A stretch of DNA of 64,000 nucleotides from Dehalococcoides mccartyi (lineage in GTDB: Bacteria > Chloroflexota > Dehalococcoidia > UBA2979). Positions within the stretch are counted from its first letter, which is position 1, and each line of letters begins with the position of its first letter. Below the pieces are notes generated by a model. That model was not told where the DNA came from, did no database searches, and worked only from the letters and a program-made list of their open reading frames with translations. Made by a program: the position numbers and the translations under genes. Below, piece after piece: positions 37,153-38,795 of this stretch. The DNA is taken from contig CAMBFG010000001.1 in NCBI GenBank assembly GCA_945865925.1, forward strand, positions 142,854 to 206,853, in the 5' to 3' direction.

Positions 37153-37173
37153 GTCAGTTCAGATCAAACGAAA

Positions 37174-37199
37174 CAGGCGCCGATCTTTCTCGGCGCCTG
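37174..37199. terminator. bidirectional terminator-like hairpin after ppdK
   Basis: CAGGCGCCGA-TCTTTC-TCGGCGCCTG, a perfect 10-bp stem, between the ppdK stop (37152) and the convergent gene stop (37225). Confidence 0.5.
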
Positions 37200-37224: not shown

Positions 37225-37509
37225 CTACCGCGCCAGCACCGGCTCGTCGACCTCGCGGAGCATGCGCTCGACGGTGGCGAGACGCTGCTCGACTTCCTCG
37301 AGGCGCGTGAGGGCCTGGGCGGTCTCGCGCTGGGCTGTCGCAAGTTCATCGGCGAGCCGGCGCTGCTCTCGCAGTTCCGCAAGCGTCGCGTTGGTCCGCG
37401 TGCGTTCCCGCATGATCAGCATGACCTGACGCGCCAGGACGGTGAACACGATCGCGAGGATCGCGAAACCCGTCATCGCGAAGATCATTCCTGCCAACTC
37501 GTGGTTCAT
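37225..37509 (-). CDS. small membrane protein with C-terminal coiled coil
   Basis: One TM helix (MIFAMTGFAILAIVFTVLA) then a heptad-like Glu/Arg/Leu-rich segment. 10 nt downstream of the ArsR gene. Confidence 0.5.
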   Translation of the reverse strand: MNHELAGMIFAMTGFAILAIVFTVLARQVMLIMRERTRTNATLAELREQRRLADELATAQRETAQALTRLEEVEQRLATVERMLREVDEPVLAR

Positions 37510-37519
37510 CGATGTACCC

Positions 37520-37882
37520 CTAACTGTCCGTGTTCGTGCCCGTGGTGAGTCCGGCGCGCACCGCTGTTGCTACGACCTCGGGGGTGAGGTGCAAGGCGAA
37601 GGGCGTGGTAGCCACGTACCGCATCGCCTTGCCGTCTTCCGAGATCTCCATGCTGCTCCGCACGAGCCCGGCGGCTTCCAGCCGCTGAAGGTGCATGTGG
37701 AGCAGCGGCCGTCCGATCTGGAGGTCGCGCGCCAGCTGGCTCACGTAGTTCCGGCCGCCCGCGATCGCCTCGACGATGCGGAGCCGGTGCGGATGAGCCA
37801 GGGCCGTGAGCACGCGCAGCAGTCCGTCTCCATCCAGGGAGGCTCGGGCGGGATCTGCCGGTGCGTGGCTCACGTCGACCAT
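37520..37882 (-). CDS. ArsR/SmtB-family transcriptional regulator
   Basis: Winged-helix segment LRVLTALAHPHRLRIVEAIAGGRNYVSQLARDLQIGRPLLHMHLQRLEAAGLV. Confidence 0.8.
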   Translation of the reverse strand: MVDVSHAPADPARASLDGDGLLRVLTALAHPHRLRIVEAIAGGRNYVSQLARDLQIGRPLLHMHLQRLEAAGLVRSSMEISEDGKAMRYVATTPFALHLTPEVVATAVRAGLTTGTNTDS

Positions 37883-37918
37883 GTGTCAGAACATACTGAC
37901 ACATGACGACTCTGTCAA
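37880..37918 (-). promoter_or_regulatory. sigma-70-like promoter (TTGACA-17-TATGTT) with overlapping 10-6-10 perfect palindrome, leaderless start
   Basis: Minus strand reads TTGACA gagtcgtcatgtgtcag TATGTT ctgacac ATG. Palindrome CATGTGTCAG-aacata-CTGACACATG (37880-37905) brackets the -10 and includes the start codon. Confidence 0.65.
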
Positions 37919-37928
37919 TCATCGATGA

Positions 37929-38645
37929 CTAGCGGGGAGCCCTCGCGTCCGCGCAGGCGGCGGAGACGGCGGCCAGGGCACGGTCGGCGGGGCCCCAGGA
38001 GTTCGCACGGGCGAACTGCATCGCGACGGTGGTGCCGGTCAGACACTCGTTGAGGGACTGGATGCGCTGTTCGGCGCGAGTGGTGGCTTCCTTCGCGGCC
38101 TTCGCCTCCGCTGCGGCCTTCGTGACCTGCTCACGCAGGCCCTTCGCCTCAGTCTCGGCAGCGGTCGCGCGGGCCTCCACCTCCGCCTGAGTGCGTCCTC
38201 GGGCGGCTTCGAGGTCCTTCAGGCGCTGCTGCGTGGCGTCGAGGGCGGTCTGCAGTTCTACCTGCTTCGCGCCACTGGCAGCAGCCGAGGACTGCGCCGC
38301 TGCCAGTTCGGACTCGGAGGCGCCACTGGGCATCGTCACCAGGATCAGCGCGATGAGCGCGATGAGGGCCGCGCTCCCGATGACACCGAGCACCCTTCCG
38401 GACGGCCGGTCGAGATGTGGTACGCGCGAGAGATTGGGTACGTGAGGCCGCGCAGATGTCCGCGATGGGCGGGGCACGGCCAGTCGCAGGCCTCGCGCCT
38501 GTGTGAGCACACCGACGGCGGCGGCACGGCTGCGCTCGACCGCTTGTTCGAGGCCGTTGGGACGTCCGAGCGGAGATGCTGCACCACAGAAATCGCATTC
38601 AGCGCGCAACGGGTGCAACGGTCGGCCACATTCTGCACATTTCAT
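37929..38645 (-). CDS. zinc-ribbon / TM / coiled-coil protein
   Basis: N-terminal CAEC...CDFC zinc ribbon, central TM (VIGSAALIALIALILV), long Ala/Glu/Lys-rich coiled-coil tail. Confidence 0.55.
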   Translation of the reverse strand: MKCAECGRPLHPLRAECDFCGAASPLGRPNGLEQAVERSRAAAVGVLTQARGLRLAVPRPSRTSARPHVPNLSRVPHLDRPSGRVLGVIGSAALIALIALILVTMPSGASESELAAAQSSAAASGAKQVELQTALDATQQRLKDLEAARGRTQAEVEARATAAETEAKGLREQVTKAAAEAKAAKEATTRAEQRIQSLNECLTGTTVAMQFARANSWGPADRALAAVSAACADARAPR

Positions 38646-38734
38646 CAGGCACCTCGCTGTCTCGAGGCCAATACGGGCCTCAGAAGGACAACGACGCGAC
38701 GCCGTTCGCCGTTCCGTCCGGGCTCACAGAAATA

Positions 38735-38762
38735 GGACGGCGCCGGTTGCCCGACGCCGTCC
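38735..38762 (-). terminator. intrinsic terminator-like hairpin downstream of glmS
   Basis: GGACGGCG-12-CGCCGUCC stem, followed on the minus strand by CUAUUUCUGU. Confidence 0.5.
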
Positions 38763-38795
38763 CCCCCGAAGCCGCACGGGCTCTGGTGCGCGTGG

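Follow-up and report, generated by a model that had tools for sequence, protein, structure and literature searches.

How is a small regulator gene controlled when only 46 nucleotides (nt) separate it from the gene upstream? The question is raised by a 64-kb stretch of Dehalococcoides mccartyi DNA (contig CAMBFG010000001.1; "the window" denotes this whole stretch), in which a minus-strand gene for a 120-residue ArsR-like regulator follows the TAG stop codon (37931-37929) of an upstream open reading frame (ORF), with 46 nt between that stop and its own ATG. We consider it likely that this gap holds a promoter and an operator dedicated to a two-gene operon, which would be transcribed as a leaderless mRNA and repressed by a dimer of the regulator itself. 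The 26-bp inverted repeat (dyad) that spans the −10 hexamer and the ATG is almost certainly the site, predicted from sequence, by which the ArsR-like repressor shuts its own promoter.

Positions follow the numbering of the window; gene and promoter lie on the minus strand, and sequences are given in minus-strand orientation. From 37928 to 37880 the strand reads TCATCGATGA-TTGACA-N17-TATGTT-ctgacac-ATG, and its elements are:

37919-37928, minus strand: 10-bp palindrome TCATCGATGA, abutting the −35 hexamer; judged non-functional, not being kept in the related loci L088 and L089
37913-37918, minus strand: −35 hexamer TTGACA, consensus, kept in L088 and L089 (direct reading and promoter scan)
37912-37896, minus strand: 17-nt spacer, gagtcgtCATGTGTCAG (direct reading)
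37890-37895, minus strand: −10 hexamer TATGTT (TAnnnT), identical with the 6-nt spacer of the dyad (direct reading and promoter scan)
37889-37883, minus strand: ctgacac, the 7 nt that separate the −10 from the ATG (direct reading)
37886-37888, minus strand: in-frame TGA within the right arm of the dyad (cTGAcacATG), 6 nt upstream of the ATG (direct reading and ORF limits)
37880-37882, minus strand: start codon (ATG) of the regulator gene, forming the final 3 nt of the right arm; a leaderless mRNA would have its +1 here
37880-37905, minus strand: predicted 26-bp operator dyad CATGTGTCAG-tatgtt-CTGACACATG, a perfect 10-6-10 repeat (repeat search and family comparison)
37520-37882, minus strand: regulator gene, encoding a 120-residue ArsR-fold winged-helix protein with recognition helix GRPLLHMHLQRLEAAGLV (Pfam, AlphaFold2 (AF2) and Foldseek)

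The consensus −35, the 17-nt spacer and the −10 located 7 nt before the ATG that the initial annotation had described are confirmed base for base. The same is true of its perfect 10-6-10 inverted repeat around the −10 and including the ATG; the repeat search gives two arms (37880-37889 and 37896-37905) of 10 nt each, 100% complementary and 6 nt apart. Both key bases of the −10, A2 and T6, are present. TTGACA-17-TATGTT scores 10/12 in the promoter scan, where it is the sole match between 36.5 and 39.5 kb and the better of two between 28 and 48 kb. With up to three mismatches allowed, the dyad pattern occurs once in the 64-kb window and not at all in 100 dinucleotide shuffles, and only two perfect 10-6-10 repeats are present in the window, the second being the terminator of the same operon. 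The 49-nt stretch has a G+C content of 43%, against 69% for the window.

In the mechanism that we propose, RNA polymerase would use TTGACA-N17-TATGTT and begin transcription on the A of the ATG or no more than about 1 nt away from it, 7 nt downstream of the −10. On such a leaderless mRNA, the regulator would be translated from the 5' end, and the second gene, which encodes a small membrane protein (the partner), through its own Shine-Dalgarno (SD) sequence. One regulator dimer would bind the 26-bp dyad; its recognition helices would read the inner TGTCAG hexamers, at a centre-to-centre distance of 12 bp, and its wings would reach the outer CAyr. As −10, start site and start codon all lie within the dyad, an occupied operator would exclude RNA polymerase, and the outcome would be tight negative autoregulation of a strong promoter.

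Conservation of the dyad and its pairing with the recognition helix

The regulator has 3503 homologues, and at least 584 loci were confirmed by tblastn in species-representative genomes. We analyzed 80 of them, from Streptomyces, Streptosporangiales, other Actinomycetota, Dehalococcoidia, Thermomicrobiales, Oxalobacteraceae, one Syntrophomonas, and one Thermoplasmatota metagenome-assembled genome (MAG). A search without prior bias for complementary 10-6-10 arms, run upstream of the conserved PHRLRI codon, returned the same motif nearly everywhere, that is, in Streptomyces, Streptosporangiales, Dehalococcoidia, Thermomicrobiales, Oxalobacteraceae and the Thermoplasmatota MAG. A position weight matrix (PWM) with the consensus CAyrTGTCAG-N6-yTGACAyrTG was then applied with a threshold of 14 bits. 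It gave 93 matches in the upstream zone from −200 to −60 of the PHRLRI codon (140 nt), covering 79 of 81 loci, and only two elsewhere in ∼480 kb. The seeds of the matrix were picked by a regular expression, which makes part of the information content at its fixed positions circular; neither the positional enrichment nor the unbiased palindrome search suffers from this.

Metagenomes gave a similar picture. A scan of 241 million records for exact matches to the 20 specified bases of the window dyad yielded 11 sites, nine of them directly upstream of a family member, and at five of these loci (L091, L095, L096, L099 and L100) the homologue begins with the ATG of the arm. In close relatives, −35, 17-nt spacing, −10, dyad and ATG all persist between diverged flanks. 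L088, whose protein is 88% identical, retains TTGACA, the spacing, a perfect dyad and the ATG, and has a better −10 (TATAGT); L089 (98% identical) behaves alike, with TATGTT at the same place. Across the family, a match of at least 5/6 to TTGACA is found 3–16 nt upstream of the dyad at 49 of 79 loci, compared with 8 of 316 control windows (p ∼4e-33). The range over which this predicted site and the partner gene are conserved runs from Chloroflexota through Streptomyces and Massilia to an archaeon.

Regulator, dyad and partner also occur together in L012 (the Thermoplasmatota MAG, archaeal) and L014 (Syntrophomonas, a Firmicute), which suggests that the whole module has spread horizontally, or else that the MAG is contaminated.

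The sequence of the half-site depends on the protein encoded next to it. Proteins with ...RPLLH(M/L)HLQ... in the recognition helix are paired with TGT(C/A)A(G/A) arms (96 of 100 arms), and those with ...RALLQVHLRK... with TGC(T/C/A)A(A/G) arms (54 of 54). Both types can be held as paralogues by one Streptomyces genome (L010/L053, L033/L046, L048/L078), which suggests that the paralogous PLLH/TGTCAG and ALLQ/TGCTAA cassettes may be insulated, orthogonal repressor-operator pairs. This covariation of half-site and recognition helix identifies the dyad as the putative operator of the regulator itself. It also makes a role for a different, unlinked transcription factor, with the ArsR-like gene nearby only by accident, extremely improbable. 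An exact copy of the dyad does precede an unrelated multicopper oxidase gene on a metagenome contig (L092), which would favour such a factor; however, the dyad travels with the regulator gene across phyla in which the remaining neighbours differ entirely, and the half-site switches together with the recognition helix even between paralogues in one genome. Positional conservation, covariation with the helix and adjacency in metagenomes (79 of 81 loci and 9 of 11 exact copies) thus agree, in silico, with the earlier proposal of autoregulation through a dyad in the regulator's own promoter.

An inverted repeat could instead act in RNA, as a hairpin in read-through transcripts from the upstream 238-residue ORF that terminates transcription or hides the ATG, with no protein operator involved. 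For the 76-nt region, folding gives −28.1 kcal/mol (z = −2.45) and a stem of 15 pairs that contains the ATG, and the upstream gene is not separated from the regulator gene by a terminator. However, no U-tract follows the stem, and the −10 lies inside or beside the left arm, so transcripts from the window promoter would not contain that arm. The arms, moreover, are conserved in sequence and not in pairing: only three of 79 dyads are perfect, the mode being 7/10 complementary positions, and at positions 3, 4 and 8 each arm varies on its own, while position 7, the specificity switch, changes in both together. This pattern argues that the arms are constrained as half-sites and not as a stem. Together with the covariation between half-site and protein helix, it leaves a hairpin in RNA a quite unlikely explanation of the repeat.

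The 10-bp palindrome TCATCGATGA had been put forward as a second notable element of the gap. It exists and abuts the −35, as described, but it is neither conserved nor statistically remarkable. The window contains 106 perfect 10-bp palindromes (1.66 per kb), so that one within a 46-nt gap is unexceptional, and the position reads TCATC--CGA in L088 and CCTCGATGGA in L089. A second operator at this place is therefore rejected for lack of conservation even at 88–98% protein identity and for lack of rarity, and the palindrome is probably due to chance. A second copy of the dyad itself is found in many relatives (Streptomyces, L001, L011, L040), 29–33 bp upstream from centre to centre, its right arm providing the −35 TTGACA. 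The window has a geometry like that of L001 at this position, but the left arm is degenerate (PWM score of −3.8 bits), a vestige at best.

Further dyad copies, for which the initial annotation had proposed to look, were not found: the PWM scan detected no other site above 6 bits within the 64-kb window, which accordingly gives no sign of a wider regulon there. In the ∼480 kb of related loci, the sole extra strong site is CACATGCCAAAAAAGATTAGCAGATG (19.1 bits), at 1478-1503 in L044 and in the identical L049, ∼340 nt downstream of the partner gene and without an obvious target ORF. On the metagenome contig mentioned above, the perfect copy CATGTGTCAG-aaaact-CTGACACATG (L092:824-849) has no family regulator nearby. 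The ATG of its arm is the start of an ORF (L092:847-2415) for a 522-residue multicopper oxidase with a twin-arginine-like N-terminus, and this gene could be an additional, likewise leaderless, target of the regulon.

Start of transcription and translation

A TANNNT signal ∼12 bp upstream of leaderless starts has been reported in bacteria, Chloroflexi among them (PMC3160421). The geometry of the window agrees with this signal, the first T of the −10 being located 13 nt upstream of the ATG. Direct reading reveals no SD sequence or purine-rich tract upstream of the regulator ATG, and the in-frame TGA inside the arm forbids an N-terminal extension of the ORF. A GTG at codon 4 lacks an SD sequence as well and is lost in L088, where the ATG is kept. 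The second gene of the operon has an SD-like AGGGG, which indicates that SD sequences are in use in this organism, and that the gene for the regulator lacks one. In sequence, the start thus combines a TAnnnT ending 7 nt upstream with the lack of an SD sequence and of an alternative start codon, and the regulator mRNA is probably leaderless. The earlier suggestion of a leaderless mRNA gains good in silico support from the −10/ATG geometry, the missing SD sequence, the in-frame TGA and the conservation in relatives.

Comparison of the family reveals two registers of promoter and dyad. In register 1, which includes most loci, the −35 is 10–11 nt from the dyad and the −10 extends over the end of the left arm (TAAnnT, TAGnnT or CAGnnT); most of these genes have a short leader containing AAAGAGG or GAAAGG and start 12–25 nt downstream. 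In register 2, represented by the window, L001 and Oxalobacteraceae, the −35 is 6–7 nt from the dyad and the −10 is the dyad spacer itself (TATGTT in the window, TATCTT in L001, TATTGT in Oxalobacteraceae), 6–7 nt before the ATG or GTG of the arm. The arm codon is in frame and open at 7 of 8 loci with the −35 at 6–8 nt, compared with 15 of 41 at 10–13 nt (Fisher p = 0.016). Over the whole set, it is usable as a start in 31 of 79 loci and is the sole plausible start in 17 of those. Because the outer part of the operator consensus, yrTG, invariably finishes with ATG or GTG, a start codon is built into the operators of the family. Some lineages, including that of the window, appear to use this operator codon leaderlessly, and others an SD-led start 12–25 nt downstream.

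Promoter and dyad might both be real and the mRNA still not leaderless, owing to a very short leader, to leadered read-through or to a start at the codon-4 GTG. The choice of transcription start site (TSS), 6–9 nt after a −10, is flexible, and most geometries in the family predict a TSS 3–4 nt before the arm ATG, with SD-led starts; the window, in addition, does have the GTG. Transcription preferentially starts at a pyrimidine-purine step. The cA at the seventh and eighth nt after the −10 is such a step, however, and neither ATG nor GTG is preceded by an SD sequence. L088 dispenses with the GTG and not with the ATG, and the arm start stays in frame in 7 of 8 loci of the same geometric class. 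On balance, we regard a leadered or GTG-initiated mRNA as unlikely and retain leaderless initiation at the ATG.

The regulator, its membrane partner and the limits of the operon

The assignment of the 120-residue protein to the ArsR family in the initial annotation is borne out by Pfam and by the predicted fold. The protein passes the cut-offs of HTH_5 (PF01022; 41.6 bits, cut-off 22) and HTH_20 (PF12840; 38.3 bits, cut-off 27). Its AF2 model, with a predicted local distance difference test (pLDDT) score of 83, has the ArsR/SmtB topology a1-a2-a3-aR-b1-b2-a5, with helices at residues 18-28, 31-40, 47-53, 58-70 and 101-109 and strands at 74-80 and 86-92. The top Foldseek matches are Phr, NolR, HlyU, SrnR, CzrA and BigR, and the probability is 1.00 for Phr, NolR, HlyU, CzrA, BigR and SqrR.

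Metals or oxidants, which had been suggested as effectors, find no support. In NCBIfam, neither the equivalogs nor the metalloregulator subfamily model reaches its cut-off for the regulator, the metalloregulator model NF033788 scoring 45.8 bits against a cut-off of 55. The regulator contains no cysteine, and none of the canonical ArsR/SmtB ligand sets (alpha3/alpha3N Cys, alpha5 D/H/E, alpha4C Cys) is present among the invariant residues of 26 homologues. The invariant columns include only two histidines, H62 and H64, both in the recognition helix, and H62 is replaced by glutamine in the second subfamily. Lacking cysteine and canonical metal ligands, the regulator is not a classical metal sensor, and a metal bound at a canonical ArsR/SmtB site is an improbable inducing signal. 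An association with defence systems was also considered and rejected, PADLOC giving only generic HTH matches to Csa3/CasR. An identical regulator protein is encoded on a 577-kb ENA metagenome contig (ERZ27280278 k141_524080). The best matches to the GlmS protein of the window come from Dehalococcoidia/Chloroflexota MAGs; the host is accordingly a high-GC member of the Chloroflexota, and an actinobacterial origin was rejected.

The remaining features of the operon and its surroundings are:

37517-37521, minus strand: SD-like AGGGG ahead of the partner gene, sharing bases with the regulator's TAG stop, 7 nt before the ATG at 37509 (direct reading)
37225-37509, minus strand: second gene of the operon, encoding a 94-residue partner with an N-terminal transmembrane helix, a coiled coil and a C-terminal VERMLREVD
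37162-37199, minus strand: intrinsic terminator of the two-gene operon, a GC-rich 10-6-10 hairpin followed by TTTCGTTTG
37929-38645, minus strand: upstream 238-residue ORF, on the same strand as the regulator gene
38734-38763, minus strand: strong terminator-like hairpin after glmS, 13 pairs followed by ATTTCTGTGA

The partner ORF begins ten nt downstream of the regulator gene. A partner of 60–125 residues directly follows the regulator in at least 68 of 81 loci, 53 of which have it overlapping the regulator stop (ATGA). At or near the C-terminus is the motif [IVM]E[KR][ML][LM][RK][ED][VI][ED], and further features are a basic juxtamembrane stretch and a YRxLAE motif; by the positive-inside rule, the basic stretch would place the C-terminal part of the partner in the cytoplasm. 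The partner has no Pfam or NCBIfam match above cut-off. DUF948 and PspC were rejected as identities (20.9 bits against a cut-off of 37.2 and 17.8 against 104, respectively), sub-threshold matches to DUF948 or PspB/PspC-like families being seen in only two to three of 25 partner proteins. An SdpI identity was likewise rejected, as there is one N-terminal transmembrane helix and no SdpI match. From its recurrence in sequence, the regulator with its single-pass membrane coiled-coil protein is a conserved two-gene cassette; the initial annotation had made no mention of the partner gene.

The co-transcribed membrane protein would be the most likely candidate for the signal, its cytoplasmic coiled coil and C-terminus holding or releasing the repressor. 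A broader and more tentative possibility is that the cassette is a horizontally mobile signalling module, in which a metal-independent repressor would be controlled by the membrane partner through the EKMLREVE motif, relaying an envelope signal to the conserved operator; with a start codon supplied by the operator consensus, lineages could toggle between leaderless and SD-led starts. By analogy, this could involve membrane sequestration or release in the manner of SdpR/SdpI or PspA/PspBC.

Downstream, the operon ends with the second perfect 10-6-10 repeat of the window, CAGGCGCCGA-tctttc-TCGGCGCCTG at 37174-37199. Located between the partner gene and a convergent pyruvate phosphate dikinase gene, it looks like a bidirectional terminator. 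Upstream, the hairpin after glmS indicates that a new transcription unit begins with the 238-residue gene, and its transcripts may extend into the regulator operon. The 238-residue ORF gives only sub-threshold family matches and is not conserved beside the cassette in other lineages. Its product combines a zinc-ribbon-like CxxC...CxxC motif at the N-terminus with a transmembrane segment and a long coiled coil rich in Ala and Glu. In Streptomyces sp. Tu 2975 (L081:5001-9878), the cassette is divergent from a glutamine synthetase gene, with MMPL, DUF3105 and DUF305 genes downstream on the same strand; these neighbours and the multicopper oxidase of L092 hint at an envelope or copper link.

Several points weigh against the reading of the gap as the promoter and operator of an autorepressed, leaderless operon. 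The number of promoter-like matches is by itself not significant (2 found against 1.1 expected in 20 kb), and the match is convincing by virtue of its position and conservation, not of this count. The loci are phylogenetically related, so that the counts overstate the number of independent events, and the covariation of helix and operator amounts to essentially two clades. An SD-led start is used at 44 of 79 loci, most −35 hexamers of the family being 10–11 nt from the dyad; with SD-led starts in the majority, leaderless initiation would be a lineage-specific variant and not the family rule. In the absence of a terminator between the 238-residue gene and the regulator gene, a leadered read-through transcript may also exist. 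Finally, we infer purely by analogy that the partner modulates the repressor.

Relation to known systems

The element is ordinary in kind, a negatively autoregulated repressor promoter with a predicted leaderless start, in an apparently uncharacterised but widespread cassette. No description of the family was found in the searchable open-access literature on ArsR proteins combined with leaderless, operator or membrane-partner topics. The locus offers a clean, fully readable example, with operator, −35, −10, predicted TSS and start codon all within 39 nt. Its natural specificity switch (H62/TGT versus Q62/TGC) is directly testable, and since the family is large and the operator intact across phyla, one binding and two-hybrid study would annotate thousands of genes. 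The compact repressor/operator pair, with two apparently orthogonal specificities, would be usable in high-GC hosts.

The closest general likeness is to the ArsR/SmtB autorepressors (SmtB, CzrA, CadC, NolR, BigR, HlyU), which share the fold, the small dimeric winged-helix form and an inverted-repeat operator over their own promoter. The regulator of the window differs from them in having neither cysteine nor the alpha3N/alpha5 metal ligand set, and its cargo is a small membrane coiled-coil protein instead of an efflux pump, a metallothionein or a reductase. The operator of SmtB and CzrA is of the 12-2-12 type, whereas that of the window is 10-6-10.

In the SdpR-SdpI system of Bacillus subtilis, an ArsR-family autorepressor is sequestered at the membrane by its co-transcribed partner (PMC2910880). 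Our operon is similar in its two-gene arrangement, with an ArsR-fold putative autorepressor co-transcribed with a membrane protein. However, the SdpR model NF033789 scores 23.8 bits against a cut-off of 100, so that the regulator falls outside that family; SdpI is a multi-pass protein, while the partner here has a single helix and a coiled coil, and there is no linked toxin gene.

Phr of Pyrococcus furiosus (PDB 2p4w) is the best match in the PDB by both sequence and structure, with 31–32% identity over 74–87 residues. Phr is likewise an autorepressor, with a palindromic site overlapping its start site. It differs in being a 202-residue protein with a long C-terminal dimerisation domain that is absent from the 120-residue regulator; the score for NF053602 is 23.9 against 320 bits, and the operator sequences differ.

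Repressor genes whose start codon is the +1 of an operator-controlled promoter are known as well, and include lambda cI transcribed from PRM, tetR of Tn1721 and many actinobacterial regulators. The gene described here resembles them in having its −10 6–7 nt before the ATG, no SD sequence and a predicted 5'-terminal AUG. It differs from them in that the start codon belongs to the consensus of the operator half-site (yrTG), and in that its orthologues appear to use one and the same operator leaderlessly in some cases and with an SD-led start in others.

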